DNA of 64,000 bases from Oscillospiraceae bacterium (GTDB lineage Bacteria; Bacillota; Clostridia; UBA1212; UBA1255). The translations under genes were made by a program, and so were the position numbers. Below the pieces are notes generated by a model, which saw only the letters and a list, made by a program, of their open reading frames with translations, did not search any database and was not told where the DNA came from. Positions 6,845-32,171 of this stretch are shown here, piece after piece. Location of the stretch: contig SVJD01000002.1 in NCBI GenBank assembly GCA_015069165.1, positions 65,385 to 129,384 on the forward strand, written 5' to 3'. Each line of letters opens with the position of its first letter. The stretch's first letter is position 1.

Positions 6845-6847
6845 TAC

Positions 6848-7735
6848 ATGGCTAAACAAGTAAAAGCAAAAAAGCAATTAGCACATAAGCGTACTTTAGG
6901 CAGTGTTATTTCCTTTGAAAGAAGAAAGTCCCTTGAGGGTTGGGCGTTCTCTATTCCTTGGGTTATCGGATTCATAATTTTCATTTTGGTTCCGCTCATA
7001 CTTTCAATCAGAATCAGTTTTTATATTACTCAGCTTACTGACCTTTACGGTTTTGAAGGCCAGAGTAAATGGACCGGCATTCAAAACTACGTGGATATTG
7101 TTCAGAATCCGGAAGTCGGAGAAGTAATGCTGAACTCCTTCCTTGATTCACTTTGGCAAGTGCCGATTATAGTGTTCTTTGCACTTTTTGTAGCGGTACT
7201 TCTTAAACAGAAATTCGCGGGAAGAGTATACTTCAGAGTAATATTCTTTATCCCTGTTATTCTCGCCGGCGTAATTATGAGTTACCTCTTCGGAGAAGGT
7301 GTAGGAAGCATAAGCGTATTCGGTTCGCTTGTAAATTCCACATCAGGTATTTTCTCTACTTTCGGCGGAAAGCTTACACAGTATATCGGTGATATCATGT
7401 GGAGCAGCAGTGTTGAAATATTGATTTTCCTTGCAGCTTTGCAGAGTGTTCCGGATATTCTTTACGAGGTAGTTGAAATTGACGGTGCCACAGCTTGGGA
7501 GTCATTCTGGCATGTAACACTTCCTTATATTTCACCTTTCGTAATTTTGAATTGTATATATGCTCTTGTTGACTCATTTACAAAGTATAACAACCCTGTA
7601 ATGAGTATGATGAATCAGATGACGGAAAAGGGTACTGAGTACGGTATGGCATCTGCTTTGAGCTGGATGTATATGCTCCTTGCTCTCGTTACGATTCTTA
7701 TATTCATCTTATTTACAAGGAGGTGGCTCAAGTGA
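6848..7735 (+). CDS. Carbohydrate ABC transporter permease (MalF type), second system
   Basis: GGGAGGAAAG RBS. Multi-TM protein with EAA loop YEVVEIDGATAWESFWHVTLPYI. Confidence 0.85.
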   Translation: MAKQVKAKKQLAHKRTLGSVISFERRKSLEGWAFSIPWVIGFIIFILVPLILSIRISFYITQLTDLYGFEGQSKWTGIQNYVDIVQNPEVGEVMLNSFLDSLWQVPIIVFFALFVAVLLKQKFAGRVYFRVIFFIPVILAGVIMSYLFGEGVGSISVFGSLVNSTSGIFSTFGGKLTQYIGDIMWSSSVEILIFLAALQSVPDILYEVVEIDGATAWESFWHVTLPYISPFVILNCIYALVDSFTKYNNPVMSMMNQMTEKGTEYGMASALSWMYMLLALVTILIFILFTRRWLK

Positions 7736-8700
7736 CGAAGTTATATAATAAAGTTTCTGATTTTTTCACAGGACTTGTTGAGAAATACAGAAATTTGGGC
7801 TATAAAGCAAAAAAGAAAATTACTTTTGTAATCGGACGTATTTTCCTGTATTATGTTTTGATTGAGCTTGCTTACTTATTCTTGCTGCCGTTCATATACA
7901 TTTTGACAACATCTATGATGTCATATCAGGATTATATGGATCCTACGGTAAGTTGGATTCCGACTGCGTTCGAATATCAAAACTTCGTTGATGCTTGGAT
8001 TGGTCTTTCATATCCTCGTTCATTCTTGAACTCTTTGATTTTGTCTTTGGGAAGTGCGCTCTTACAAGCAGTTTCTTGTGCAATCATCGGATATGCTTTG
8101 GGTAGATTTAAATTCAAAGGAAGAAATCTTTTGTTTATCTTCTTGATTCTTGTTTTGTTGATTCCTCCCCAAACAACAATCTTGTCATCATACGGTATGT
8201 GGGCTACATTTGGTTTGACAAATACATACGCTCCGATTCTTGTTCCGTGTATATTCGGTCTTGGTTTGAGAGGTGCATTGTTCGCTTTGATTTATATGTA
8301 CTTCTTCCAGAGAATCCCCGATGCTATGGATGATGCGGCACGTATCGACGGTGCAGGTCCTTTGAGAGTATTTATCCAGATTATGTTACCTTTGGTAAAA
8401 TCTGCTATTGCAATTGTATTTATTTTCTCATTTGTATGGCACTGGAATGATAACTACGAAGCACCGACATATATGTTCAAACAAAACATGATGACACTTC
8501 AGCCGAAACTCGATAAGATTCAGACATATTATGCTGAAATTATGGGTTACAGCGGCGAAGCAAGTGATTTTGATAAAGCTATGACAGAGCCCATGCTTTT
8601 TGCAGGATGTTTGCTTGTTATGATCCCTGTTTTGATCGTATACATAGCAGGCCAAAATAAATTGGCATCCGGTATTGAGCGACTCGGCGTTATAGAGTGA
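7732..8700 (+). CDS. Carbohydrate ABC transporter permease (MalG type), second system
   Basis: The GTG at 7732 lies 8 nt after AAGGAGG (7717..7723) and overlaps the upstream stop (GTGA). The track start at 7723 sits inside the RBS. EAA loop DDAARIDGAGPLRVFIQIMLPLV. Confidence 0.8.
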   Translation: MTKLYNKVSDFFTGLVEKYRNLGYKAKKKITFVIGRIFLYYVLIELAYLFLLPFIYILTTSMMSYQDYMDPTVSWIPTAFEYQNFVDAWIGLSYPRSFLNSLILSLGSALLQAVSCAIIGYALGRFKFKGRNLLFIFLILVLLIPPQTTILSSYGMWATFGLTNTYAPILVPCIFGLGLRGALFALIYMYFFQRIPDAMDDAARIDGAGPLRVFIQIMLPLVKSAIAIVFIFSFVWHWNDNYEAPTYMFKQNMMTLQPKLDKIQTYYAEIMGYSGEASDFDKAMTEPMLFAGCLLVMIPVLIVYIAGQNKLASGIERLGVIE

Positions 8701-8711
8701 CGGAGGATTAT

Positions 8712-10244
8712 ATGTTTAAGAAATTACGTAATGCTTTAATATTAGTATTAGTTGTTGTGATGACCGTATCTTTAATCGGTTGCTCCGGAAGCGGAAGCGG
8801 AAACAACGATGACAGCAATTCGGGACAGACAAAACCTGTTCCGGAGGATCTTGCCGGAACAATTACAATTTCTGCATACAATGCAGAATATACAGCAAAT
8901 GACCCCTACGGTGAAGACGAAAACAATGATAATGATAATGATTTGTTTATGTTCACACAGGCATTTGCACAGCAATATCCCAGTGTAGATGTTCAGTTGG
9001 ATGCAACACTCGGATATGATGAGTACTTTGAAACTCTTGATGCAAGAATTGAAAGCGGAAATATCGGAGATGTAATTCTTATAAGCTCCGACAAACTTCC
9101 CGAGTATGTTGAAAAGGGTTGGATTGTTGACATCAGCAATGAAGCAAACGGTGTAACAGACTTCACAGATCCTCAATATAACAAACTTTATCCTTCAAAA
9201 GTATACATGCAAGCAGCTTATGATGCTTCTGTGTATGACGGTCGTTTGTATATGTGCCCTGTTGAGTATTTGAATCAAGTAGTTATTCTTAACCTTGATT
9301 TGCTCAAAGCAGCGGGAATTGAAAACCCGGTTCCTGCAGATGATTGGACATGGGAAGATTTGCGCGGATATGCAGAAGCACTCAAAAACAGCGGTGTAGA
9401 AACACCAATGCTTATGAATTATAACGATTATTCTATTTGGGGTTCTTTTGCTCAAAGCTTTGGCGGCAGTATTTACAATGATGTAAACTTTGCAGATAAG
9501 ACTGTTGAACTTAATTTGACAGACCCTAATGTTATCGAAGGTCTTGTGTATTTTGCAGAAAACTTCCTCAGAACAGGTTACGTAAGTGATAAAACAACGA
9601 AGGAAGTTAAAGGCGAGGATTTGTCTAAATACGGTATTATAGTGGCTGACCACTCTGATATTGTAAAATGGCAGAAAACTTTGGAGACTGTAAAAGCAGA
9701 TGACGCCGAAAGCACTGCTTTTGATTGGGAGTTTGCTCATTTTCCGGGATTTGCGGCTGAAGATGGTACAGTTTGTAAAAATATAGGAGTAAAGACTTTG
9801 GGCTTTGCGGTTATAAATCGTGAAGTAGTAAAATCAATTGATTCTTCTGCGATTGATAAAACTGAGGACGAAATCAAAGAAGAACAGGCAGAAATTGCAA
9901 ATACAATTAAATTGGCAAAGAGCCTTGCTCTTTATGCAATGGTAAAAGATGCAGCGGTTGCTTATGCAGGTGAAACAGGATACAAAGTACCGGCAATAAA
10001 GAATGCAAATGATATGAAGTTTTGGAGAGAATATCCTGCTTCAGGAAAGAACACATCAGTTTTCTCTTTGTATGCAGAAAATGACTACCCTGCGATTCTT
10101 ACTTCTTTCATGTCATGGAATGCTTCTAAAGAAGTAAAAGATGCAGTTGCAAAAGTTTTTGAGTCGTATGTTGAGGAACAGTCGATAGCGCGTATTGATG
10201 AATTACTTCAGGAAATTCAAGATGCCGCAAATGCAAATGATTAA
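8712..10244 (+). CDS. ABC transporter solute-binding lipoprotein
   Basis: ATG follows GGAGGA. Lipobox LIGC followed by a Ser/Gly/Asn/Asp-rich linker. SBP-like body. Confidence 0.8.
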   Translation: MFKKLRNALILVLVVVMTVSLIGCSGSGSGNNDDSNSGQTKPVPEDLAGTITISAYNAEYTANDPYGEDENNDNDNDLFMFTQAFAQQYPSVDVQLDATLGYDEYFETLDARIESGNIGDVILISSDKLPEYVEKGWIVDISNEANGVTDFTDPQYNKLYPSKVYMQAAYDASVYDGRLYMCPVEYLNQVVILNLDLLKAAGIENPVPADDWTWEDLRGYAEALKNSGVETPMLMNYNDYSIWGSFAQSFGGSIYNDVNFADKTVELNLTDPNVIEGLVYFAENFLRTGYVSDKTTKEVKGEDLSKYGIIVADHSDIVKWQKTLETVKADDAESTAFDWEFAHFPGFAAEDGTVCKNIGVKTLGFAVINREVVKSIDSSAIDKTEDEIKEEQAEIANTIKLAKSLALYAMVKDAAVAYAGETGYKVPAIKNANDMKFWREYPASGKNTSVFSLYAENDYPAILTSFMSWNASKEVKDAVAKVFESYVEEQSIARIDELLQEIQDAANAND

Positions 10245-19894: not shown

Positions 19895-20458
19895 ATGGCA
19901 AATTCAACAAAAATCCAGGAAATTGCATCACGTGTAAAAGAGCTCCGTGAAATATCTGACGTCACAATTGAAGAGATGGCAGAGCAATTAGGCATGTCTG
20001 CAGAAAAATATACGGCATACGAAAATGCACAAGCTGATTTCCCGGTGAGCGTGCTGTACGAAATTTCGTCTTTCTTGCGAGTCGACATGACGGAACTTCT
20101 TACAGGAGTATCTCCTCGTCTTGCAAACTGTTCATTAGTGAGAAAAGGCGAAGGTATTGCTGTTGACAGATATGAGGGTTATGACTTTGAAAGCATAGCA
20201 TACAAGTTTATAGGCAGAAAAATCGAGCCTATGATAGTTACGGTTGATGCCAAAACAGAACAAGAGCCGCCGAAGATGGTTTCACACACAGGGCAAGAAT
20301 TCAACTACGTGTTGGAAGGAACCGTTAAAGTACATTTCGGAAACAGTGAATTTATATTAAACGAAGGTGATTGTTTGTATTTTGACCCTACAACACCGCA
20401 CTCACAAAATGCTATGGGCGGCAAAGATGCAAAATTCTTAACGGTTATTTTGCTGTAA
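19895..20458 (+). CDS. XRE-family HTH transcriptional regulator with C-terminal cupin domain
   Basis: N-terminal HTH_3-like sequence (IEEMAEQLGMSAEKYTAYENAQADFPVSVLYEIS). C-terminal cupin (GQEFNYVLEGTVKVHFG...GDCLYFDPTTPH). Confidence 0.8.
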   Translation: MANSTKIQEIASRVKELREISDVTIEEMAEQLGMSAEKYTAYENAQADFPVSVLYEISSFLRVDMTELLTGVSPRLANCSLVRKGEGIAVDRYEGYDFESIAYKFIGRKIEPMIVTVDAKTEQEPPKMVSHTGQEFNYVLEGTVKVHFGNSEFILNEGDCLYFDPTTPHSQNAMGGKDAKFLTVILL

Positions 20459-20476
20459 TTATTTGGAGGTTATTGA

Positions 20477-22153
20477 ATGGATTATATATTAAATAAATTT
20501 TTGCCTCGTATAAAATTTGACTCATACGAGGACTTTAAAAAGAATTTTAAAATAAATGTTCCCGAGGATTTTAACTTCGGTTATGACGTAGTAGATGCTT
20601 GGGCAGAGGCAGAGCCGGAAAAACGTGCTCTCGTTTGGTGTAACGACTACGGCGACGAGAAGATTTTTACATTTACGGACGTAAAACACATAAGTAACAA
20701 AATGTGTAATTATTTCAAGTCCATAGGCTTGAAAAAAGGCGATAAGGTACTTCTTATAATGAAACGTCGTTGGGAATATTGGATTACCGTAACAGCACTT
20801 CATAAAATGGGTGTCGTAATTATTCCGGCTACATTCCAACTTACAGAAAAAGACCTTGTTTACAGAATCAACGCAGCTTCTGCGAAAATGATTATTTGTG
20901 CACAAGACGACAATATAATATCGCACGTTGAAAATTCATTGGATCAGTGCCCCACACTTATGTATAAAGCACTCGTTATGAAAAGTGGTGAGTCAAGAGA
21001 CGGTTGGATAAATTATACGGAAGCTTACGAAGGTCAAAGCGACGTATTTCCCCGTCCTCAGGGAGAGGATTTCGTATCTGCCAATGATTTAATGATAATT
21101 TACTTTACAAGCGGAACAACAGGCATGCCCAAAATGGTACAACACGTTCAGTCATATCCTTTGGGACATATTCTTACTGCGAAATATTGGCAGCAAGTAG
21201 AGGAAAACGGACTTCATTTGACTGTTGCCGATTCCGGCTGGGCAAAATTCTCTTGGGGCAAAATTTACGGTCAGTGGATTGCGGGCTCTGCAAATCTCGG
21301 TTACGATATGGATAAATTTGAACCCCACAAGCTTTTGAGTGTTATTGAGAAATATAAAATAACAACTTTCTGTGCGCCTGCTACGATGTACAGATTTATG
21401 ATAAAAGAAGATGTTACAAAATATGACTTGTCTTCGATTCATCACTGCTGTATGGCGGGAGAACCATTGAACCCTGCTGTTTTCGAGCAATGGGAAAAAT
21501 TGACGGGACACAAGCTTTACGAAGGTTTCGGACAGACAGAAACACCCGTTTTAATGGCTAACTTTGAATGGCTAAATATTAAGCCCGGCTCTACAGGAAA
21601 AGCATCTGCTCTTTACGATATACATATCGTAAATGAGAACGGCAAAGATTGTGAAATAGGCGAAGAAGGCGAGATAGTAATTAAAAATGCAAAGGCTAAT
21701 CGCCCGGTAGGACTTACAATAGGATATTACAATGACGATAAAGCAAACGAAAAATTGTATGCAGGCGGAGATTTCCATACGGGAGACAACGCTTGGTACG
21801 ACGAAGACGGACATATATGGTTTATTGGTCGTGTGGATGACGTTATTAAATGTTCCGGCTACAGAATAGGACCTTTCGAGGTTGAAAGTGCGCTCATGAC
21901 GCATCCTTCTGTTTTGGAGTGTGCCATTACGGCTGCTCCCGACCCGGTAAGAGGACAAGTGGTAAAAGCAACGATTGTATTGGCAAAAGGGTACGAAGCC
22001 TCTGAGGAACTCAAAAAAGAGCTTCAGAACCACGTTAAAAAGGTTACGGCTCCTTATAAGTATCCGAGGATAGTAGAGTTTGTAAAAGAGCTGCCAAAGA
22101 CTACCAGCGGCAAGATTCGCCGCGCGGAAATCAGAGCGCAGGAGAAAAAATAA
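20477..22153 (+). CDS. AMP-forming acyl-CoA synthetase (medium-chain ACSM-like)
   Basis: AMP-binding motif YFTSGTTGMPK, then GYGQTE-like EGFGQTE, then C-terminal LPKTTSGKIRR. Confidence 0.8.
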   Translation: MDYILNKFLPRIKFDSYEDFKKNFKINVPEDFNFGYDVVDAWAEAEPEKRALVWCNDYGDEKIFTFTDVKHISNKMCNYFKSIGLKKGDKVLLIMKRRWEYWITVTALHKMGVVIIPATFQLTEKDLVYRINAASAKMIICAQDDNIISHVENSLDQCPTLMYKALVMKSGESRDGWINYTEAYEGQSDVFPRPQGEDFVSANDLMIIYFTSGTTGMPKMVQHVQSYPLGHILTAKYWQQVEENGLHLTVADSGWAKFSWGKIYGQWIAGSANLGYDMDKFEPHKLLSVIEKYKITTFCAPATMYRFMIKEDVTKYDLSSIHHCCMAGEPLNPAVFEQWEKLTGHKLYEGFGQTETPVLMANFEWLNIKPGSTGKASALYDIHIVNENGKDCEIGEEGEIVIKNAKANRPVGLTIGYYNDDKANEKLYAGGDFHTGDNAWYDEDGHIWFIGRVDDVIKCSGYRIGPFEVESALMTHPSVLECAITAAPDPVRGQVVKATIVLAKGYEASEELKKELQNHVKKVTAPYKYPRIVEFVKELPKTTSGKIRRAEIRAQEKK

Positions 22154-22183
22154 AATTATAAATAACGAAAGGAATTGATAGAT

Positions 22184-22522
22184 ATGGCAAAAGGATTCAG
22201 AGGCGGTTTCGGAGCAAAAAACGGTGCGGGTAATAATATGCAACGTCTTATGCAGCAAGCACAGCAAATGCAAAGAGAAATGGAAAAAGAGCAGGCTGCA
22301 ATTTCAGAGAAAGTTTTTGAAAGTACATCAGGCGGCGGTGCGGTAAAAGTTGCTATGACAGGAGAAAAGAAAATCACTTCTCTTGAAATTAAACCCGAAG
22401 TAGTTGATCCTGAAGATGTTGAAATGCTTCAAGATCTTATTATGGCGGCTATAAATGAGTGTGTTGAGACTATTGACACAGAAACACAAGCTGTAATGGG
22501 CAAATATACAATGGGAATGTAA
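22184..22522 (+). CDS. ybaB: Nucleoid-associated protein YbaB/EbfC
   Basis: MQQAQQMQ...[20 protein letters not shown]...[12 protein letters not shown] is typical of the family. The ATG at 22184 has better RBS spacing than the track's TTG at 22175. Confidence 0.85.
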
Positions 22523-22523
22523 A

Positions 22524-23120
22524 ATGGGAGTATACGGAGCATCAGTTACAAAACTCATAGAGCAATTTGAAAAATTACCGGGAATTGGGCATAAGTCTGC
22601 CCAAAGAATGGCTTTTTATATTTTGGGCAGAACACAAGAAGAAGCAGACGAGTTCGCAGATGCAATAAAAACTGCAAGAAAAGAACTTAAATATTGCCGG
22701 ATTTGTCAGAATATGGCTGATAAAGACGTTTGTGACATTTGCAGTAATGTAGCAAGAGATAACGGTAAAATATGCGTTGTGGAAGATCCGAGAGATGTTA
22801 TGGCAATGGAAAGGTCAAAAGTGTTTCTCGGCAGATATCACGTTTTGCACGGTGTTATGTCGCCCATAAACGGCATTGGTCCGGATGAGTTGAAAATCAA
22901 AGAGCTTTTGGCAAGAATTGATGACAGTGTAAGCGAAATAATTATCGCAACAAATCCTAATGTTGAAGGCGAGGCGACTGCAATGTACCTTGCTAAGCTT
23001 TTAAAACCATTCGGTGTTAAAATCACACGAATAGCTCACGGTGTGCCGGTTGGAGGCGACCTCGAATACGTGGATGAAGTAACAATAGCAAGAGCATTGG
23101 AGAACAGAAAAGAATTATGA
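22524..23120 (+). CDS. recR: Recombination protein RecR
   Basis: [15 protein letters not shown]4 zinc finger (CRICQN...CDIC) and Toprim region. Confidence 0.95.
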
Positions 23121-24187
23121 TAGATAAATTACAGGCAGCAGAATTTCGATACGAAGAGCTGACTCAAAAATTAACAGACCCGGAGGTTTTGAGTAATTCC
23201 GACGTCTACAGAAGAACCGCCACAGAGCATTCAGAATTAGAAGAGCTTGTGACGGTTTACAGAGCATACAAAGAAGCTGTAAAAGAACGTGACGAAGCAA
23301 AAGCTATGCTTTCTGAACAATTAGAAGACGAATTTCGCGAGCTTGTAAAAGAAGAGTTTCGCAGTAAAAACGAAGAAATTGCAGAGTTTGAAGAAAAACT
23401 TAAAATAATGCTTATCCCCAAAGACCCTAACGACAACAAAAACGTAATTGTTGAAATACGAAGCGGTACGGGAGGAGAAGAAGCAGCACTTTTCGGAGCG
23501 GTGCTTTTCCGAATGTATTCAAAATTTGCAGAGCGCATGGGCTGGCGTATAGACATCGTAGACTTTAACGAAACCGAGATAGGCGGTGTTAAAGAGTGTA
23601 CTTTCACGATTGTGGGCGCGGGCGCTTACAGTAAAATGAAATTCGAAAGCGGTACCCACAGAGTTCAGCGCGTACCTGCTACGGAATCAGGCGGCAGAAT
23701 TCACACTTCTGCGGCTACTGTTGCAGTTCTTCCTGAAGTGGAGGACATTGATGTAGAATTAAACTTAAGTGATGTTGAAATAGAAACTTGCAGAGCAGGC
23801 GGTGCGGGCGGTCAGCACGTAAATAAAACGGAATCTGCTATACGTTTGATTCATAAACCCACAGGAATAGTGGTTACTTGCCAAGATGAACGTTCGCAGC
23901 TTAAAAACAAAGAACGTGCATTTAAAGTGCTTCGTTCAAAGCTTTACGAGAAACAAAAAACGGAGCGCGATAATTCCGTAGCAGAAACGAGAAAAAATCA
24001 AGTCGGCTCAGGCGACCGCAGCGAAAAAATCAGAACGTACAATTATCCGCAAAACCGCGTGACAGACCACAGAATAAATCTTACATTGTATCAGTTGGAA
24101 GCTATTCTCGACGGAGACCTTACAGAAATAATCGAAGCCCTTATCACAAGTGAACGTGCGGAAAAACTTGCAAAAGGAAACGGATGA
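23117..24187 (+). CDS. prfA: Peptide chain release factor 1
   Basis: PAT tripeptide ([10 protein letters not shown]) and the GGQ motif ([13 protein letters not shown]). Confidence 0.95.
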
Positions 24188-24194
24188 CGTCAAA

Positions 24195-25259
24195 ATGAAC
24201 ACAGAAATAGTAAAAATCGACAGAAATAATATCGACAAAGAAAAAATTTCATATTGCGCAGAAGTAATAAAAAGAGGCGGACTCGTTTGTTTTCCGACGG
24301 AAACCGTTTACGGCCTTGGGGCAAGTGCGTTTAATGCAGAGGCAGTAAATAATGTTTATAAAGCAAAAGGCAGACCGGCAGATAATCCGCTTATTGTTCA
24401 TATTTCAAATTACGAAATGTTGGAACTCGTTACTGATTGTGAGGGGGAACAACGCAACGTATTAAATAAATTGGCAGATAAATTTTGGCCGGGACCGCTT
24501 ACAATGATTGCACACCGTGACGATGCAGTGCCTGCAAATGTTTCTTGCGGACTTGATACAGTAGGAATCAGATTTCCGTCACACCCGATTGCTCAAGCTT
24601 TAATTGAAGCTTCCGGAGTGCCGATTGCCGCGCCGAGCGCGAATTTGTCGGGAAAACCCAGCCCTACAAGAGCTTCTCATGTAATTGAGGACATGATGGG
24701 CAGAGTGGATATTATAATCGACGGAGGAAATTGTGACGTAGGAGTGGAATCCACTGTTTTTGATATTGCAGGAGAGCAAATGAGCGTATTAAGACCCGGA
24801 GCTGTTACTTTGGAGCAAATTTTAACTGTCGTAGAATCGGCAGACGAGCCGGATTGGATGAAATCACATGGGGATTCCGACGAAAAACCACGTTCGCCGG
24901 GACTTAAGTACAGACATTATGCGCCGAAAGCAACCGTGAAAATTTATGACGGAGAGCAAAATTTAAGAGTAAAACATATATTAAATGAAATAGAAAAAGC
25001 AAAGATGGGCGGGCTTAATTGCGGAGTTCTTACCACGGACGAGAATGTGAGATACTATGAAAATGCCGCAACCGTTTTATCTCTCGGTAAAGAAAGTGAC
25101 AGCTTACAGCAAGCTTCGAATCTTTTTCACTGTTTAAGGAGCTTCGATGAAATGAAAGTTGATTTTGTTTTTGCCGAAGCTGTGCCGTCGGGCGGAGCAG
25201 GAGATGCTGTTATGAACAGACTATACAGAGCCGCCGGAGGGAATATTATTCGGGTTTGA
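24195..25259 (+). CDS. tsaC: L-threonylcarbamoyladenylate synthase (Sua5/YwlC type TsaC)
   Basis: YrdC-domain motif GGLVCFPTETVYGLGA plus a C-terminal Sua5 domain. Start chosen as the first ATG after the prfA stop. Confidence 0.85.
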   Translation: MNTEIVKIDRNNIDKEKISYCAEVIKRGGLVCFPTETVYGLGASAFNAEAVNNVYKAKGRPADNPLIVHISNYEMLELVTDCEGEQRNVLNKLADKFWPGPLTMIAHRDDAVPANVSCGLDTVGIRFPSHPIAQALIEASGVPIAAPSANLSGKPSPTRASHVIEDMMGRVDIIIDGGNCDVGVESTVFDIAGEQMSVLRPGAVTLEQILTVVESADEPDWMKSHGDSDEKPRSPGLKYRHYAPKATVKIYDGEQNLRVKHILNEIEKAKMGGLNCGVLTTDENVRYYENAATVLSLGKESDSLQQASNLFHCLRSFDEMKVDFVFAEAVPSGGAGDAVMNRLYRAAGGNIIRV

Positions 25260-25397
25260 ATGTTTTGTCATATATGACTCTCGCTTTATGCAAATTATCT
25301 TTTAATATTATACATATAAAGGAAACATAAACGCTTGTTTTTTCTCTAAACTACAGTAGTGTAAAATATAAGAATGATTTTATACGGAGGTATTGAA

Positions 25398-26240
25398 ATG
25401 GAGAAAAAATTAACAAGAGAACACATTCAGAGTTTTTACACATGGCTGAAAACAGAAGAAAAAAGCAAAAACACAATAGAAAAGTATATTAGAGATGTAT
25501 CAGCTTTTATAAAATATTTAGGAAATGTTAGTGTTACAAAAGATAAAGTAATTGAATATAAAACAAAGTTGATTGATGAAGAATATGCCGTACGCAGTAT
25601 AAATTCTATGCTTGCATCATTAAATAGCTTATTTACCTTTCTTGGGTGGCATGATTTAAAAGTTAAATCAATAAAATTGCAAAATCAAATATATTGTTCG
25701 GAAGAAAAAGAACTTACAAAAGCCGAATATTTGCGTCTTGTAAATACAGCTAAACAAAATGGGAACAAGCGTCTGAATTTATTGATACAAACAATCTGCG
25801 CAACAGGAATACGTGTAAGTGAATTGCGATATATAACTCTTGAAGCGGTTAGAAGGGGGACAGCTGTTGTTTCTTTGAAAGGAAAAACTCGACCGGTTTT
25901 AATTATCTGTGAATTGCAAAAAAAGTTACTCCGTTACGCAACAGAACAACAAATTACGTCAGGTGCAATATTTATAACTCGAAACGGCAAACCAATGAGT
26001 CGTATTAATATTTGGAAAGAAATGAAAAACCTTTGCAAAGAAGCAGGCGTTAACCCGTGCAAAGTGTTTCCTCACAATCTAAGACATCTTTTTGCTCGTA
26101 CTTTTTATGGAATAGAAAAGGATATTGCAAAACTTGCGGATGTTCTGGGTCATAGCAGTATAAATACTACACGAATTTATATTGTTACAACCGGAGATGA
26201 ACACAGGAAAAAGTTGGAAAGTATGAGATTGATAATATGA
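25398..26240 (+). CDS. Small tyrosine site-specific recombinase (XerC/D-like), candidate invertase
   Basis: GGAGG RBS. SAM-like N-terminal domain. Catalytic signature ATGIRVSEL (Arg) ... HNLRHLFA (His-x-x-Arg) ... LGHSSINTTRIY (His, Tyr). Confidence 0.85.
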   Translation: MEKKLTREHIQSFYTWLKTEEKSKNTIEKYIRDVSAFIKYLGNVSVTKDKVIEYKTKLIDEEYAVRSINSMLASLNSLFTFLGWHDLKVKSIKLQNQIYCSEEKELTKAEYLRLVNTAKQNGNKRLNLLIQTICATGIRVSELRYITLEAVRRGTAVVSLKGKTRPVLIICELQKKLLRYATEQQITSGAIFITRNGKPMSRINIWKEMKNLCKEAGVNPCKVFPHNLRHLFARTFYGIEKDIAKLADVLGHSSINTTRIYIVTTGDEHRKKLESMRLII

Positions 26241-26265
26241 AAAAGAAAAATAAAACGATAAAAAC

Positions 26266-26287
26266 AACATAATCAATATTATGTTTC
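26266..26287. repeat. Left inverted repeat of the invertible element
   Basis: AACATAATCAATATTATGTTTC is the exact reverse complement of 26538..26559. Confidence 0.95.
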
Positions 26288-26370
26288 GGATATATATTCG
26301 AAAAAAACAAATATATCGTCTCGATGTTAAATTTTATCATAGAACAAAATAAAAATCAACAGATAAAAAA

Positions 26371-26399
26371 TTTAAAAATGAATTTTCGTAAATTATAAT
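26371..26399 (+). promoter_or_regulatory. Weaker promoter candidate on the + strand, sharing the palindromic -10
   Basis: TTTAAA (26371..26376), a 17-nt spacer, then TATAAT (26394..26399). Confidence 0.3.
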
Positions 26400-26420
26400 T
26401 TACATAAGTGAGCATGCCAA
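26392..26420 (-). promoter_or_regulatory. SigA-type promoter candidate inside the switch, currently pointing away from the surface operon
   Basis: The minus strand reads TTGGCA (26420..26415), a 17-nt spacer, then TATAAT (26397..26392). Confidence 0.45.
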
Positions 26421-26486
26421 TATAAACCTTATTATAGAGTATTTTGAGTACAAATATAACAAGGTTTATATTGTTATGCTTTTTTT
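26418..26486 (+). terminator. Hairpin plus T-run inside the switch (orientation-dependent terminator candidate)
   Basis: CAATATAAACCTT (26418..26430) pairs with AAGGTTTATATTG (26461..26473). The stem is extended by TTATA/TATAA after one mismatch. T7 at 26480..26486. Confidence 0.4.
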
Positions 26487-26537
26487 ACTGTTTTTTAGAG
26501 CGCTTTTTAACTGTGGTAAAACTTTTAAGTTTTATTT

Positions 26538-26559
26538 GAAACATAATATTGATTATGTT
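26538..26559. repeat. Right inverted repeat of the invertible element
   Basis: GAAACATAATATTGATTATGTT. With its flanks it reads GAAACATAA-TATTGA-TTATGTTTC, two 9-bp inverted arms around an asymmetric centre. Confidence 0.95.
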
Positions 26560-26597
26560 TCAAAGTGTCAAAAAATATTATACAAGGAGTGTGGATA

Positions 26598-29500
26598 ATG
26601 AAATCAAAAACAAAAAGGATTATTTCTTTATTGCTTGTGGTTATTTTGGTATGTAGTATTTTACCAATACAGACAGTTCAAGTTCAAGCGGCAGGCTTGA
26701 GTCTTCAGCAACTAAAGGACAAATTTCCACAAGATGCTTATTGGAACGGCGGTAACGTAGATAGTTATACGTGGACGCCATGTGCTTCGCATAGCAATTG
26801 TGATTATTATGGTGGGTGTAATTGTAATTCGTTTAGCAATGCGATTCAATGTCATGGCTTTGCTCTAAAATTGGGATATGATGCATTTGGCACAAACCCG
26901 AGAAATTGGTCACGAGCAGGAGCTCCATATAGTTATATTGACTCTTTAAAACCAGGCGATATTGTAACATCTGATTCTCCGTATCATACCTTTTTTGTTA
27001 TTGGTGTTACATCTTCTTCTGTAACTATAGGAGAGTGCAATTATGGTGGGAGATGCAGAATTAATTGGGGAAGAAGCATTAATAAAGCTACGATAGCTGG
27101 TTATTCTGGACTTGCAATCTATATTGCTCCTGCGACTCTCAATATAGATAATCATGTTCATTCATACACCTCAAGTGTAACCACGAATCCCACATGTACT
27201 TCTGCAGGCGTGCGTACATATAGGTGCTCTTGTGGTAGTAGCTACACTGAGAGTATTGCTGCGTTGGGTCACGATTATACCGGTGATAGATTGTATGAAA
27301 CTGCACACCCGCACCAAATTTCACAAAGGTGCGTCAGATATAGTTCTTGCGGTGGTTTTTATTGGACCGGAGAGAATTATTTTTTATCGGATTGTAGTAC
27401 TTGTTTGGCAGAAAATCCAAAACAAATACATAGTTCTCATAGTTCTGCATCACTGTCCTTAGGAGGTGCGGATTCACAAACTATATATTTTTGGTCAAGT
27501 GGCTATTATAATGGTAACTGTAGTTATCTTTGGGAAAGAAGTAATTCGAACATATTGCCCATTTGGGGAGATTGGACGGAAGATAATAAACTCCCGTTAA
27601 CTATAACAGCGAATTCTATAGGAACAACAGTGTTGACTGTATCTATAATAGATAGCGATACGGAAGCAGTTTTAAGCCGCAAGACGATAAATGTCACTGT
27701 GGGTGTATCTACTTCTTCGTTAAGTGTAAATACCTCAAACAGCGCGACAATATCTACTGCCGGAAAAATGAAGTATTATGAATACACTCCGTCAACAAGT
27801 GGTACATACGTTATTTATTCAACTGGTTCTGCGGATACAAAGGTGCATTTGTATAATGTAAGCGGAACAGAGTTGGATAGTAATGATGACGGCGGTGATA
27901 ACAGTAATTTTAGATTGGAGTACAATCTGACGGCCGGAACAAAATATATATTTGGAGTAAAATACTATAGTTCCTCAACAACGGGAACGATTCCGTTTAA
28001 GTTTGGCAATGTATACACCGTAAATTATAATGCTAATGGTGGAACCGGTGCTCCTTCTTCACAAAAAAAAGATTATGGCGCGAGTATTACATTGAGTAGT
28101 ACTTTACCAACAAGAAGTGGATATACATTTAAGGGCTGGGCTACAAGCAGTTCTGCGACAAGTGCAACATATCAGCCCGGTGACACCTATACAGCTAACT
28201 CCAGTACAACGCTTTATGCTGTTTGGAAAAAGGTGTTCTATGGAGATGTAAATCAAGACGGTGTGCTTGACAATAACGATATTCTGCGTATGAACAAGAT
28301 TCGTCTTGGCAATGTAGAGGCAACAAATTGGGAATTGTTCGCAGGAGATTTGGATGGTGATGGCACCATTACAATGGATGACATCGAATTGCTAAACGCA
28401 TTTATTCTGAGAAAAAGCACACAATTTCCGGTAGAACAGATGAAAAAAATGCTGATGATCAACACATACCCAGATAAAACGGATTATTGTATTGGAACAC
28501 AAATTAGCACAAACGGATTAAGCGTTATTTTATATTATGCAGAAACCTCCGAATGCTATTATGTGACAGAGTATTGTGATATCGTGCTTCCCTCAACAAG
28601 CAGCGCAGGCAAGAAGAATGTAGATATTTCTTTTGGAGGCTTAGAGACGCAGTATCAAATTACCGTTACATCGGAACACAGCTATACCTACAAGACCACC
28701 AAGACACCGACAACGTCTGCAACCGGTATATTGACGGGCACCTGCTCAAAATGCTCCGGTACGACTACCGTAACTTTGCCCAAATTGAATACTACCGACT
28801 ACGGCTACCAAGTCACTAAATCGGCAACCTGCACAGCCACCGGCACAGGGCGGTACACCTGGAAGACAACCACCTATGGTAGCTTCTACTTCGATATAAC
28901 GATTGCCAAGGCGGCACACAGTTGGAAAGCGGCAACCTGCACCAGTGCACAAACTTGCTCTGTTTGTGGCACGACCAGTGGTTCGGCGTTGGGGCACAGT
29001 TACAACTACAAGGCAACCAAAACGCCTACAACTTCTGCAACCGGCACACTGACGGGCACCTGCTCAAAATGCTCCGGTACGACTACCGCAACTTTGCCCA
29101 AGCTGAATACCACAGATTACAGTTATTCCGTTAGAACTGCTGCGACTTGCACCGGAGCAGGTAGTGGTCGCTATACTTGGAAGACAACAACATACGGTAG
29201 TTTCTACTTTGATGTTTCTATTTCTGCAACCGGACACAATTATTCCGGCGGCAAATGTACACGATGCGGGGCAAATGATCCGAATCATGTAATTGACCAA
29301 AATGCACCCATGATAATGGTAGATACTGTTAACGGAAAAGCCGGCGAAACGGTAAAAGTAACTGTCAGCATGAAAAACAACCCCGGTATTTGGGGTATGG
29401 ACTTGGTTGTTAACTATGACAAGACACAATTAACACTTGCAAGTGTTACAAACGGAACGGTTTTTTCTTCGTCAGAATGGACACAGGGTAATTTGTCTGG

Positions 29501-29909
29501 CGACAAATGTATTCTTTCTTACGAGGCAAGTGGTCTTGATAACATTACAACAAATGGTGTACTTGCAGCATTAGAATTTGCTGTTAATAAAAATGCAACA
29601 GTTGACAGTTTTGTAAATATTTCGCTTTCATACAATGCTGGTGACATTATTAATGTAAATTTTGATGATGTAAAAGTTGCCATTGTTCCGGGCGGAATTA
29701 ATATTGCAGATTTTGTCTATGGTGATTTGAACAGCGATGGATTGGTCAACAAGAAAGATTCCTTGTTGATGAAAATGTATCTTGCTGACAATACAACAAC
29801 CATTGATATGCAAGCTGCGGATGTGTATGTTGATGGAAACATAAATAAAAAAGATTCACTCTATCTGAAACAGTACTTAGCCGGATTAGATGTTGAATTA
29901 GGTGCTTAA
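26598..29909 (+). CDS. Secreted multidomain protein: CHAP-like papain-fold domain, Cys-rich modules, Ig-like domain, PPC, Listeria-Bacteroides repeat, dockerin, Ig-like domain, 2x106-aa repeat, cohesin, C-terminal dockerin
   Basis: AAGGAG RBS and signal peptide. QCHGF...YHTFFV...GECN (Cys-His-Glu-x-Asn). YTVNYNANGGTG...YTFKGW...LYAVWK. Dockerin Ca loops GDVNQDGVLDNND/GDLDGDGTITMDD and GDLNSDGLVNKKD/DVYVDGNINKKD. Cohesin-like GKAGETVKVTVSMKNNPGIWGMDLVVNYDK...VAIVPGGINI. Confidence 0.8.
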   Translation: MKSKTKRIISLLLVVILVCSILPIQTVQVQAAGLSLQQLKDKFPQDAYWNGGNVDSYTWTPCASHSNCDYYGGCNCNSFSNAIQCHGFALKLGYDAFGTNPRNWSRAGAPYSYIDSLKPGDIVTSDSPYHTFFVIGVTSSSVTIGECNYGGRCRINWGRSINKATIAGYSGLAIYIAPATLNIDNHVHSYTSSVTTNPTCTSAGVRTYRCSCGSSYTESIAALGHDYTGDRLYETAHPHQISQRCVRYSSCGGFYWTGENYFLSDCSTCLAENPKQIHSSHSSASLSLGGADSQTIYFWSSGYYNGNCSYLWERSNSNILPIWGDWTEDNKLPLTITANSIGTTVLTVSIIDSDTEAVLSRKTINVTVGVSTSSLSVNTSNSATISTAGKMKYYEYTPSTSGTYVIYSTGSADTKVHLYNVSGTELDSNDDGGDNSNFRLEYNLTAGTKYIFGVKYYSSSTTGTIPFKFGNVYTVNYNANGGTGAPSSQKKDYGASITLSSTLPTRSGYTFKGWATSSSATSATYQPGDTYTANSSTTLYAVWKKVFYGDVNQDGVLDNNDILRMNKIRLGNVEATNWELFAGDLDGDGTITMDDIELLNAFILRKSTQFPVEQMKKMLMINTYPDKTDYCIGTQISTNGLSVILYYAETSECYYVTEYCDIVLPSTSSAGKKNVDISFGGLETQYQITVTSEHSYTYKTTKTPTTSATGILTGTCSKCSGTTTVTLPKLNTTDYGYQVTKSATCTATGTGRYTWKTTTYGSFYFDITIAKAAHSWKAATCTSAQTCSVCGTTSGSALGHSYNYKATKTPTTSATGTLTGTCSKCSGTTTATLPKLNTTDYSYSVRTAATCTGAGSGRYTWKTTTYGSFYFDVSISATGHNYSGGKCTRCGANDPNHVIDQNAPMIMVDTVNGKAGETVKVTVSMKNNPGIWGMDLVVNYDKTQLTLASVTNGTVFSSSEWTQGNLSGDKCILSYEASGLDNITTNGVLAALEFAVNKNATVDSFVNISLSYNAGDIINVNFDDVKVAIVPGGINIADFVYGDLNSDGLVNKKDSLLMKMYLADNTTTIDMQAADVYVDGNINKKDSLYLKQYLAGLDVELGA
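28677..29290 (+). repeat. Tandem intragenic repeat (2 x 318 bp, a 106-aa Cys-rich module)
   Basis: Copies start at 28677 (HSYTYKTTKTPTTSATG...) and 28995 (HSYNYKATKTPTTSATG...). They share an identical 39-nt run (tgacgggcacctgctcaaaatgctccggtacgactaccg). Confidence 0.9.
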
Positions 29910-29924
29910 AGGAGGCAATGAAAA

Positions 29925-32171
29925 ATGAAAAAAAGGCTTTTAGCACTCATACTTTCTTTAACGATGATTTTTGCTATGAGTGCTGTCAATATGTCAGCAA
30001 CGGAAACAACAGAACACACAATTACGATTGAAAATGTTGAAGCTGAAAGCGGAGAAGATGTCGCAATCAAAGTTATGATTGAGAACAATCCGGGTATATG
30101 GGGTATGGATTTAAAAATTTCATACGATAAATCAGCATTAACTCTTACAAGTGTTGATAATGGTGATTTTTATCAAGCATCTGAATGGACAAAAGGTAAT
30201 TTGAACGCGGATGTTTATATTCTTTCTTATGAGGCGGGTGGTTTAGATAATATCACTACTAAATCCGGTACTTTAGCTATTCTTAATTTCAAAGTAAGCG
30301 ATACCGCTGTAGCTGGTGATTACGCAGTAACCGCTTCTTGTAATGATGGTGATATTATCAATGTAAGTTTTGAAAATGTTCCATTTACCATTACAGGAGG
30401 TGGAGTAACTGTTAAAGCAAAACCTGTAACTGTCACAGGCGTAACCATTGACGAAACTTTGTCTCTCAAAACTGGCGAAACAAAGACCCCGGGCTACACC
30501 GTAAACCCTGCAGAAGCTACAAACAAAGCCGTTTCGTTTAAGTCTGACAATACCGATGTTGCAACTGTAAACGAGACCACCGGTGAGGTAACCGGTATCA
30601 AGGGAGGTACTACTACCATTACAGTAACCACCGCAGACGGTAACTTTACCGATACCTGCATAGTAACTGTTGCGTGCTCTCACGCAAACAAGACCCCCGT
30701 TGCAGAAAAGTCTTCCGACTGTAAGAACAAGGGTTGGGATGCTTATGTGAAATGTGACGATTGCGGTCAGCTCTTCGCTGAAAACGGCACTACCGAGATT
30801 GCCGAAATTCCCTTTCGCCAGCTCTCTGACCAACACACCGGAGGAACCGCAACTTGTACTAAACAGGCTGTTTGTACCGTGTGTAGCCAGTCTTACGGTG
30901 CTTTGACTTCTCATGATTATACTGCTGAAACGAAGAAAGCGGAAGCATTGAAAACTGCCGGTAACTGCCGTGATTATGCTGTTTACTACTATTCATGCTC
31001 TGCTTGCGGCAAAGTGGAAGATAAAGACAGCCATACTTTCAACGGCGATAAGGTTGCAGATAATCATATCGGCGGAACCACTCTTGTAAATCAGGCTGAA
31101 GCAAATCACAAAACACAGACCAACGGTTATACCGGTGATGCTAAATGCCTCGGCTGTGGCGAAATCATTGACTATGGTGAGACGATTCCGGCGGGGGCAC
31201 ATACTCCTGCTGATATTTGGTCTACTGATGGTGAGTATCACTGGAAAGAGTGTAATGTTGTTGGCTGTGGTATTGTAATTAATAATTCAAAGATTTCTCA
31301 TAGCTCTACAGGAGCAAATGTTGCTACTTGTCAAAAAAGAGCTGTCTGTGATGTTTGTGGCGTTTCCTATGGAGAAGTGGCAGACCACGATTGGAATACA
31401 ACTGCTTGGGAAAAAGATTCTACAGGTCACTGGCACGAATGCAATACTGTTGGTTGTACAGAAAAGAATGCTTTTGAGGGACATACACCTGATCACCAAG
31501 GTAATGCTACTGAAGAGTATGCTATAAAATGTACTGTTTGTCAGTATGAAATTGAAGCTCAACTCGGTCATACCCATGTGTTTGACAAAGAAGTTGCAGA
31601 GGAACAGTATATTGCAAGTAAGGCAAACTGCACTGATGCTGCAAAATACTATAAGTCTTGCAAGTGCGGAGAAAAAGGTACAGAAACTTTTGACTTTGGT
31701 GAAAAACTCGGTCATATTGAAGGTACTGCATGGGAGAAAGATTCTACAGGTCACTGGCATAAGTGCTCTATAGCCGGCTGTGGTGTAATTATCGAAAGCA
31801 GCAAAGCATTGCACACTCCTGATCGTGAAGCGGCTACAGAGAAAGATCCGATTAAGTGTTCTGTTTGTGGCTATGTAATTGCTCCTGCTATAGGTCATTC
31901 TCACGATTATAGCGGCGAGTGGAAGTCTGATAAGGGAATGCATTGGAATGAATGTTCTTGTGGTGAGGAGGCTAACAAAGCAGCTCACAAAGACGATAAC
32001 AAGGATGGTAAGTGTGATGCTTGCGGATACAATGTAGGTATTTCTACAGTTCCGAGCAATCCTCAAACCAGTGACAGTGATATGTTTTCTCTTTGGGGCA
32101 TTTTGCTCTGTGTCAGTGCTTTGGGTGTAGTTGGAATAATTTTAATTGGCAAAAAGAAATCTTTTAGATAA
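29925..32171 (+). CDS. Cell-surface cohesin protein: signal peptide, cohesin, Big_2 Ig-like domain, long Cys/His-rich repeat region, C-terminal sorting-signal-like anchor
   Basis: GGAGG RBS 15 nt after the upstream stop. Cohesin-like GEDVAIKVMIENNPGIWGMDLKISYDK...FTITGGGVTV. Big_2-like VTGVTIDETLSLKTGETKTPGYTVNPAEATNKAVSFKSDNTDVATVN. C-terminus NPQTSDSD + hydrophobic helix + KKKSFR. Confidence 0.8.
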   Translation: MKKRLLALILSLTMIFAMSAVNMSATETTEHTITIENVEAESGEDVAIKVMIENNPGIWGMDLKISYDKSALTLTSVDNGDFYQASEWTKGNLNADVYILSYEAGGLDNITTKSGTLAILNFKVSDTAVAGDYAVTASCNDGDIINVSFENVPFTITGGGVTVKAKPVTVTGVTIDETLSLKTGETKTPGYTVNPAEATNKAVSFKSDNTDVATVNETTGEVTGIKGGTTTITVTTADGNFTDTCIVTVACSHANKTPVAEKSSDCKNKGWDAYVKCDDCGQLFAENGTTEIAEIPFRQLSDQHTGGTATCTKQAVCTVCSQSYGALTSHDYTAETKKAEALKTAGNCRDYAVYYYSCSACGKVEDKDSHTFNGDKVADNHIGGTTLVNQAEANHKTQTNGYTGDAKCLGCGEIIDYGETIPAGAHTPADIWSTDGEYHWKECNVVGCGIVINNSKISHSSTGANVATCQKRAVCDVCGVSYGEVADHDWNTTAWEKDSTGHWHECNTVGCTEKNAFEGHTPDHQGNATEEYAIKCTVCQYEIEAQLGHTHVFDKEVAEEQYIASKANCTDAAKYYKSCKCGEKGTETFDFGEKLGHIEGTAWEKDSTGHWHKCSIAGCGVIIESSKALHTPDREAATEKDPIKCSVCGYVIAPAIGHSHDYSGEWKSDKGMHWNECSCGEEANKAAHKDDNKDGKCDACGYNVGISTVPSNPQTSDSDMFSLWGILLCVSALGVVGIILIGKKKSFR

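Follow-up and report, generated by a model that had tools for sequence, protein, structure and literature searches.

Contig SVJD01000002.1 of an Oscillospiraceae bacterium was analysed over a stretch of 64,000 nucleotides (called the window below), in which a tyrosine recombinase gene is followed by a short non-coding element and by the cohesin/dockerin genes at 26598-32171. The element, 294 bp from the left inverted repeat (IRL) through the right one (IRR), is very probably a promoter phase-variation switch that is still competent for inversion, as indicated by comparison with its relatives together with its anatomy in the window. Judged by sequence, the family to which it belongs is functionally a promoter inverton of the fimS type with an adjacent recombinase gene. 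This kind of switch is already known. What appears to be new is the cohesin/dockerin cargo; the family has many members and has received little characterisation. Inversion of the window's own copy we infer from the relatives and not from the locus itself.

The relatives were sought among genomes representing GTDB species, one genome per species, and at least 599 stretches were found. At least 536 of them encode relatives of the window recombinase (67-80% identical in the best 80), the hosts being Acutalibacteraceae, Oscillospiraceae, Ruminococcaceae, Lachnospiraceae and other Clostridia. Of the 69 loci whose downstream sequence reaches some 330 nt or more, 64 have a common layout: the site ACATAAT-NNNN-ATTATGT lies about 30 nt after the recombinase stop codon, its inverted copy about 262 nt further on, and a plus-strand open reading frame (ORF) mostly begins no more than about 60 nt past this second core, with about 30 nt being typical. 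The conserved arms (ACATAAT and ATTATGT) are 7 bp long, and the core is often extended inward by TGTAAA. The 4-bp centre is asymmetric and varies between species, with 25 different tetranucleotides, none of them palindromic, among the 64 loci.

The centres are reverse-complementary within the pair in all 64 loci, compared with a mean of 4.3 and a maximum of 11 loci when the partners are shuffled. Core pairs were picked with at most two mismatches in 16 nt, a rule that could conceal at most five mismatched loci, since a matched pair is lacking in only five loci. Strand exchange by tyrosine recombinases requires asymmetric centres that match in inverted orientation, and this geometry yields inversion. 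From its adjacency to the sites in the 64 loci we infer that the neighbouring recombinase is the enzyme acting on IRL and IRR.

Both orientations of the enclosed segment occur among the relatives. The inner segments of 44 species can be mutually aligned and form one homology cluster, in which 36 segments have one orientation relative to the recombinase and eight have the other, none of the 399 pairwise orientation relations being inconsistent; a second homology cluster splits 3 to 1. In particular, the loci of Ca. Avimonas merdigallinarum (L043) and UMGS1623 (L048) have identical cores and flanks that are 94% (left) and 98% (right) identical, and their inner segments are 97.3% identical as reverse complements and 58% identical in the forward comparison. 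These two loci differ by a clean inversion bounded by the cores. Moreover, in a further relative (L047; JAZRTX010000004.1, 5776-6213) the contig ends 81 nt past the right core, and this end matches, without a mismatch, the reverse complement of the 81 nt that precede the left core. It is either a flipped junction from the same metagenome or a fold-back artefact; if it is a flipped junction, then k-mers of both orientations are present in one metagenome. Contigs ending just past the recombinase gene (11 of 80) may stem from assembly bubbles caused by the repeat, but were not counted as evidence, as contigs also break upstream of this multi-copy gene.

When the 44 inner segments are aligned in a common orientation, a conserved, outward-facing extended -10 sigma-70 promoter (TTGnnn, 17 nt, TGnTATAAT) emerges, with the -35 box starting 60-85 nt from one of the cores. 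On the strand opposite to the promoter, and closer to the second core, lie one or two terminators, each a hairpin followed by a T-run. In the "major" class, 42 of 45 loci have the promoter directed at the recombinase (three ties, none towards the cargo), and in the "minor" class 8 of 9 have it directed at the cargo; correspondingly, the terminators are on the plus strand at the equivalent place in majority-orientation loci and on the minus strand in the flipped ones. Since promoter direction tracks the "major" or "minor" class, the orientations assigned from features and from homology agree. Family-wide, about 80% of the assemblies share the orientation of the window, which follows the majority pattern of a minus-strand promoter and a plus-strand terminator.

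The anatomy of the window element (Table 1) is that of the family. The 22-bp repeats reported in the preliminary description are indeed exact, IRR matching the reverse complement of IRL in 22 of 22 positions, and the distances given there, 25 nt from the recombinase stop to IRL and 38 nt from IRR to the ATG of the 1103-aa gene, are also correct. The repeat stretches to 27 nt at 93% identity, and each copy is itself palindromic (folding at -13.9 kcal/mol), with the local palindrome around IRR spanning 26535-26564. The full core sites (26267-26284 and 26541-26558; ACATAAT-CAAT-ATTATGT) have the family arms, the family polarity, in that the centre read inwards starts with C, and their own centre, which is CAAT in the left copy and ATTG in the right one. 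The initial parsing of each site into 9-bp arms around a 6-bp centre is compatible with these data and is refined by the family comparison to 7-bp arms around a 4-bp centre. With up to three mismatches allowed, the 22-mer occurs at these two places only within the 64-kb window (none expected, 100 shuffles).

Table 1. Predicted and annotated features of the recombinase, switch and cargo region (window coordinates)
Feature	Position	Strand	Details
Xer-like tyrosine recombinase, putative invertase, 280 aa	25398..26240	+	Pfam and structure alignment
Left inverted repeat, IRL	26266..26287		AACATAATCAATATTATGTTTC; core ACATAAT 26267-26273, centre CAAT 26274-26277, ATTATGT 26278-26284; family consensus
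Candidate invertible segment, non-coding, 250 bp	26288..26537		21.6% G+C
Promoter P1, predicted	26331..26359	-	TTGATT, 17 nt, extended -10 TGaTAAAAT; -35 starts 75 nt from the near (left) core
Second promoter-like site	26392..26420	-	TTGGCA, 17 nt, TATAAT (11/12); polarity as P1; position not conserved in the family
Intrinsic terminator, predicted	26410..26498	+ only	A/U-rich hairpin 26410-26481, then TTTTTTTACTGTTTTTT
Right inverted repeat, IRR	26538..26559		core ACATAAT 26541-26547, centre ATTG 26548-26551, ATTATGT 26552-26558
Ribosome-binding site AAGGAG	26584..26589	+	8 nt before ATG 26598
Cargo gene 1, secreted, 1103 aa	26598..29909	+	Dockerin_1 3.8e-17, Flg_new 2.5e-16, Cohesin 8.5e-15; signal peptide
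Cargo gene 2, 748 aa	29925..32171	+	signal peptide, cohesin, Big_2, Cys-rich repeats, C-terminal membrane anchor

The segment between the repeats contains no ORF of its own that reaches 60 aa, and its G+C content is far below the 38.2% of the whole window. The early view of it as non-coding and AT-rich with a hairpin holds, while the promoter hexamers that were also listed are no more numerous than expected by chance, so the promoter can be identified only through its family-conserved position. P1 falls in the zone 60-85 nt from the core, where the 42 of 45 "major" loci have their best promoter match, and combines this position with an extended -10 match, the promoter of the relatives being one that flips with the segment; the promoter score of the window in this zone is 11 towards the recombinase and 9 towards the cargo. 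The predicted terminator has a hairpin of -28 kcal/mol (z = -5.4) and a U-run on the plus strand only. The sole Rfam match, to a miRNA on this hairpin, is sub-threshold and spurious.

The sequenced orientation is likely the OFF state, provided that the switch is competent for inversion. It is read so because the promoter faces the recombinase, the terminator blocks transcription from that side, and the 38 nt between IRR and ATG 26598 hold only the ribosome-binding site (RBS), with no space for a separate promoter. In the proposed mechanism the 280-aa recombinase would bind both cores, exchange strands across the asymmetric centre and flip the 250-bp segment. As sequenced, P1 would be directed at the 3' end of the recombinase gene, with a predicted start near 26324 on the minus strand, the terminator would halt read-through from that gene, and the cohesin/dockerin genes would be promoterless and hence OFF. 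After inversion the promoter, then some 40 nt inward of IRR, would drive transcription towards 26598, and the terminator would face away, giving the ON state with a 5' untranslated region of about 97 nt that passes through the IRR palindrome. The flipped junction of the window element would read CGATAAAAAC-IRL-AAATAAAACTTAAAAG. It may be speculated that in the OFF state the recombinase gene is transcribed antisense and that this biases the switch, which might explain the majority orientation of about 80%. Hairpins with T-runs, resembling terminators, are seen on the minus strand within the recombinase coding region (25925-25950 and 26044-26057), and they could stop an antisense transcript coming from the OFF-state promoter.

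Several observations weigh against this switch and its assigned polarity. As was already mentioned, the promoter-like hexamers are at chance level in the AT-rich segment (10 found, 8.1 expected), and one plus-strand site (TTTAAA, 17 nt, TATAAT; 26371-26399) is directed to the cargo side and runs directly into the terminator. The inner 250 bp of the window have no detectable similarity to the inner segments of the relatives (pairwise scores of at most 36; E = 0.3 with the nhmmer family profile), the one weak match aligning the terminator of the window with that of the family in the same sense, and the orientation of the window is therefore assigned from features and not from homology. Finally, only one orientation has been found at the locus itself. 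Its other assemblies were collected via the recombinase, the 1103-aa protein and two near-identical variants, with places having the same neighbouring proteins merged, so that some flipped variants may be hidden. Samples carrying the locus include JGI 3300032167, 3300024270, 3300018493, 3300024272, 3300024303 and 3300023371, ENA ERZ27248306, ERZ27248446 and ERZ27248370, and SRA SRR27361825. The 14 other full assemblies (JGI and ENA metagenomes) are all in the orientation of the window, with zero mismatches in the inner 250 bp, and so are the partial contig L099, which ends inside the element, and the divergent strain L117 (Logan SRR27361825; 2218-3718), which shares with the window the upstream Sua5 gene, the centre CAAT and a recombinase 99% identical to its own. 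Exact searches of JGI metagenome contigs for the flipped left and right junctions gave 0 matches each, and an orientation-independent junction search of viral contigs gave 0 matches as well. Since assemblies report the majority orientation, the single orientation is weak negative evidence.

These data bear most directly on the possibility that the switch, descended from an invertible cassette, is decayed or locked, in which case inversion would have ceased in this lineage, with the cohesin/dockerin genes silenced for good or expressed by other means. The uniform orientation of all 15 other assemblies and of L117, with no flipped junction found, would agree with it, as would two lesions described below, a recombinase nonsense mutation and a split cargo gene. 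Still, the 22-bp repeats are perfect and their centres matched, the recombinase ORF is intact with its catalytic residues in 14 of the 15 assemblies, and L117 has kept the repeats and the centre although its inner sequence has drifted. A switch biased towards OFF would also produce uniform orientation calls, about 80% of the family assemblies being this way round. On balance, we consider a locked switch unlikely.

The two lesions are each confined to one assembly. In L094 (ENA ERZ27248436; 300-1143) the recombinase gene carries a nonsense mutation, A to T at nucleotide 142, leaving ORFs of 47 and 223 aa, which predicts a locked switch in that lineage. In L002 (JGI 3300024270; 6201-9511) cargo gene 1 is split into ORFs of 817 and 271 aa, which suggests pseudogenisation of a phase-variable gene.

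The recombinase itself matches the initial assignment as a small tyrosine recombinase. Its start at 25398 is favoured over 25374 because an RBS, GGAGG, sits 7 nt upstream. Pfam finds Phage_integrase (1.2e-25) and the N-terminal SAM-like domain Phage_int_SAM_1 (7e-10), the nearest solved structure is XerA (PDB 4A8E, 1e-24), and the catalytic R, K, HxxR, H and Y residues are all present when aligned to it, the predicted catalytic tyrosine being that of TTRIY near the C-terminus. The protein belongs neither to FimB/FimE nor to XerC/XerD/XerA nor to the integron integrases, all NCBIfam scores being far below the cut-offs. The FimB/FimE models give 30.5 bits against a cut-off of 221 (NF007370) and 26.7 against 222 (NF007371), and a protein of 280 aa with Phage_int_SAM_1 also differs from these enzymes of about 200 aa without a SAM-like domain. 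The Xer dimer resolvases are rejected likewise (XerA 140 against 220, XerD 125 against 330, XerC 108 against 335), and their role fits poorly with sites that form an inverted pair around a promoter and with genomes that may hold several modules. The integron integrase model TIGR02249 scores 50.6 against 265, and there is no further core near the cargo.

The best NCBIfam matches are nevertheless to XerA and to the "integron integrase" model, which brings up another explanation, that the repeats are attachment or resolution sites: sites of the Xer/dif kind, ends of a mobile element, or sites for integron-like capture of the downstream genes. The G+C content of the module could be taken in the same sense, being lower in the recombinase gene (32.5%) and the switch (21.6%), at 25398-26559, than in the housekeeping neighbours recR, prfA and sua5 (41.5%; 20000-25259). 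So could the cargo, which is highly variable even at 99% identical recombinases: the sequence of L117 departs from that of the window (26240-26700) at 6 nt past IRR, and a gene of BspA-type leucine-rich repeat (LRR) and C-type lectin character takes the place of the cohesin/dockerin gene. On the other hand, the Xer and integron scores are sub-cut-off by a wide margin, and the sites always form an inverted pair with matched asymmetric centres, a geometry of inversion and not of excision or integration. Moreover, a third core is absent within about 5 kb in all 63 loci checked, no exact core other than the two was found in the 64-kb window, and the differences between relatives are clean inversions. 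This explanation therefore appears very improbable.

A half-site, GAAACATAA, found at 25322-25330, 76 nt upstream of the recombinase ATG, was considered as a third site and rejected. Upstream half-sites of any kind are seen in only 22 of 75 related loci, at scattered positions, and as they are not conserved, this one is probably fortuitous.

A palindrome arisen by chance, or one with a purely transcriptional function as a terminator or operator and no recombination, could be imagined in a region of such low G+C content, with repeats that fold by themselves and promoter matches at chance level, but a 22-mer match is not expected by chance, the same arms with co-varying centres stand beside the same recombinase family in 64 loci, and this idea is effectively refuted by the presence of both orientations, the L043/L048 inversion and the covariation of the centres.

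The promoter switch of the window was initially likened to fimS of E. coli. The layout is shared, and inversion is borne out in the relatives: in both systems tyrosine recombinase genes (one or more) lie directly upstream of the controlled gene and in the same direction, and a non-coding element of about 300 bp with short inverted repeats carries the promoter (a predicted one here) that sets, or here would set, a surface structure ON or OFF. The likeness does not extend to the enzymes, as fimS is served by two proteins, FimB and FimE, and the window has one Xer-like recombinase outside their family. The repeats are unrelated as well, the present family having 7-bp arms and a variable 4-bp centre, and the window element, unlike fimS, also carries a predicted one-way terminator.

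The RecV-dependent switches of C. difficile (cwpV/Cdi1 and flagellar/Cdi4 among others) resemble the window in the Clostridia host, the tyrosine recombinase and the short intergenic elements before surface-protein genes. The cwpV switch acts via a terminator formed in leader RNA that is transcribed from a promoter outside the element. The likeness to cwpV is only partial, because here the promoter is predicted inside the element. The likeness to the RecV layout could not be upheld. RecV is a master recombinase that inverts several switches whose inverted repeats differ in sequence (PMC5903667). In the present family a recombinase gene of its own stands next to every switch, and the arms stay conserved from species to species.

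Invertible promoters of Bacteroides (Mpi and Tsr-type) are also promoter invertons of surface structures in gut commensals, some with adjacent tyrosine invertases. They differ from the window in phylum, repeat motifs and promoter type, and Mpi is a serine recombinase acting globally.

The closest published counterpart comes from the hCom2 inverton catalogue, as far as the available part of that report goes. The study covers 119 cultured gut strains, and its inverton group 139 comprises 33 invertons with read support from 17 strains (32 of the invertons from Clostridia), two examples being 255 and 257 bp long (Microbiome 2025, PMC11892184). Nearly all of them have a tyrosine recombinase within 5 kb, the group being paired with invertase group 35, and their orientation shifted during passaging (PMC11892184). 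Size, host class and recombinase adjacency agree with the family described here, so the two are probably one and the same family, the agreement being one of these three features. The available text of the report gives no core-site anatomy, centre covariation, promoter/terminator layout or cohesin/dockerin cargo. In the literature searched, no paper brings cohesin, dockerin or cellulosome together with phase variation or DNA inversion, in line with the remark in the preliminary description that no switch of a cohesin-dockerin system was known to its author.

The cargo of the window is a secreted cohesin/dockerin protein of 1103 aa, as originally proposed and as Pfam agrees, with Flg_new, one cohesin and two dockerins as its modules. 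It is probably co-transcribed with cargo gene 2, since the gap between them is 15 nt. Among the modules compared, cohesin cargo is found in the window only. The first downstream protein was considered in 48 modules: SPFH Band_7_1 proteins with zinc ribbons are the most frequent (12), followed by BspA-type LRR proteins and Flg_new proteins (5 each), collagen-like proteins (3), and non-ribosomal peptide synthetases (NRPS), SLH proteins, histidine kinases and TIR proteins (2 each). The cassette is thus not confined to adhesins, because SPFH/zinc-ribbon, TIR, NRPS and histidine-kinase genes are also driven by it, and some of the cargo may be related to phage defence. As far as the sequences of the window and L117 can tell, one cargo has been exchanged for another at the switch in these strains. 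The low G+C content of the recombinase and the switch relative to the housekeeping genes fits horizontal acquisition of the module.

Taken jointly, these data allow a broader reading, which we put forward tentatively, as possible rather than probable. The recombinase and a 280-bp switch would form a self-contained, horizontally spreading cassette, present in at least 536 stretches of the genomes that represent Clostridia species; its centres would diversify against cross-recombination between paralogues; the slot just outside IRR would exchange surface-protein genes even among near-identical strains; and in the window the surface assembly of cellulosome-like cohesin-dockerin complexes would have become phase-variable. 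Cohesin-dockerin assemblies of gut and rumen Oscillospiraceae and Ruminococcaceae, which bind fibre or cells, are usually discussed as constitutive or substrate-regulated. If the switch operates as proposed, only a part of a clonal population would display the complex, heritably and reversibly, which would be a way of hedging bets against phage, the host immune system or expression costs, and the reading of metagenomic and transcriptomic data for cohesin-dockerin genes would change. The more useful result is the comparative one: a single compact, readily recognised cassette occurs in hundreds of Clostridia species and drives cargo as diverse as BspA-type LRR, SPFH/zinc-ribbon, collagen-like and TIR proteins, and a recombinase gene followed by ACATAAT-NNNN-ATTATGT sites provides a simple sequence rule for the annotation of phase-variable genes in Clostridia. 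The family is also a natural set of recombinase/site pairs, possibly orthogonal ones.

Two modules have been found in one genome in two cases, both in metagenome-assembled genomes (MAGs): L016 and L024 in RGIG8528, with centres CCAC and CTGC, and L069 and L085 in DOME_MAG_5610, with centres ATGC and CCGC. The differing centres are compatible with insulation between paralogous switches, and chance alone would give the same, as two random modules share a centre with a probability of about 0.07.

The proteins of the window genes are represented at NCBI by MBE7057681-85, and the identical recombinase protein is encoded on 14 contigs, one record, from a Ruminococcaceae/Oscillospiraceae MAG, being labelled as an integrase. 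Paralogous modules are present in the same metagenomes as the locus. One of them, P0079 (L100-L109), has the centre CCGT, lies beside a mobile-element backbone with relaxase/NikA and carries TM2 and patatin cargo. The other one, P0098 (L110-L116), has the centre CTGT and drives a 1511-aa LRR protein with a dockerin, its seven contigs sharing one common orientation.

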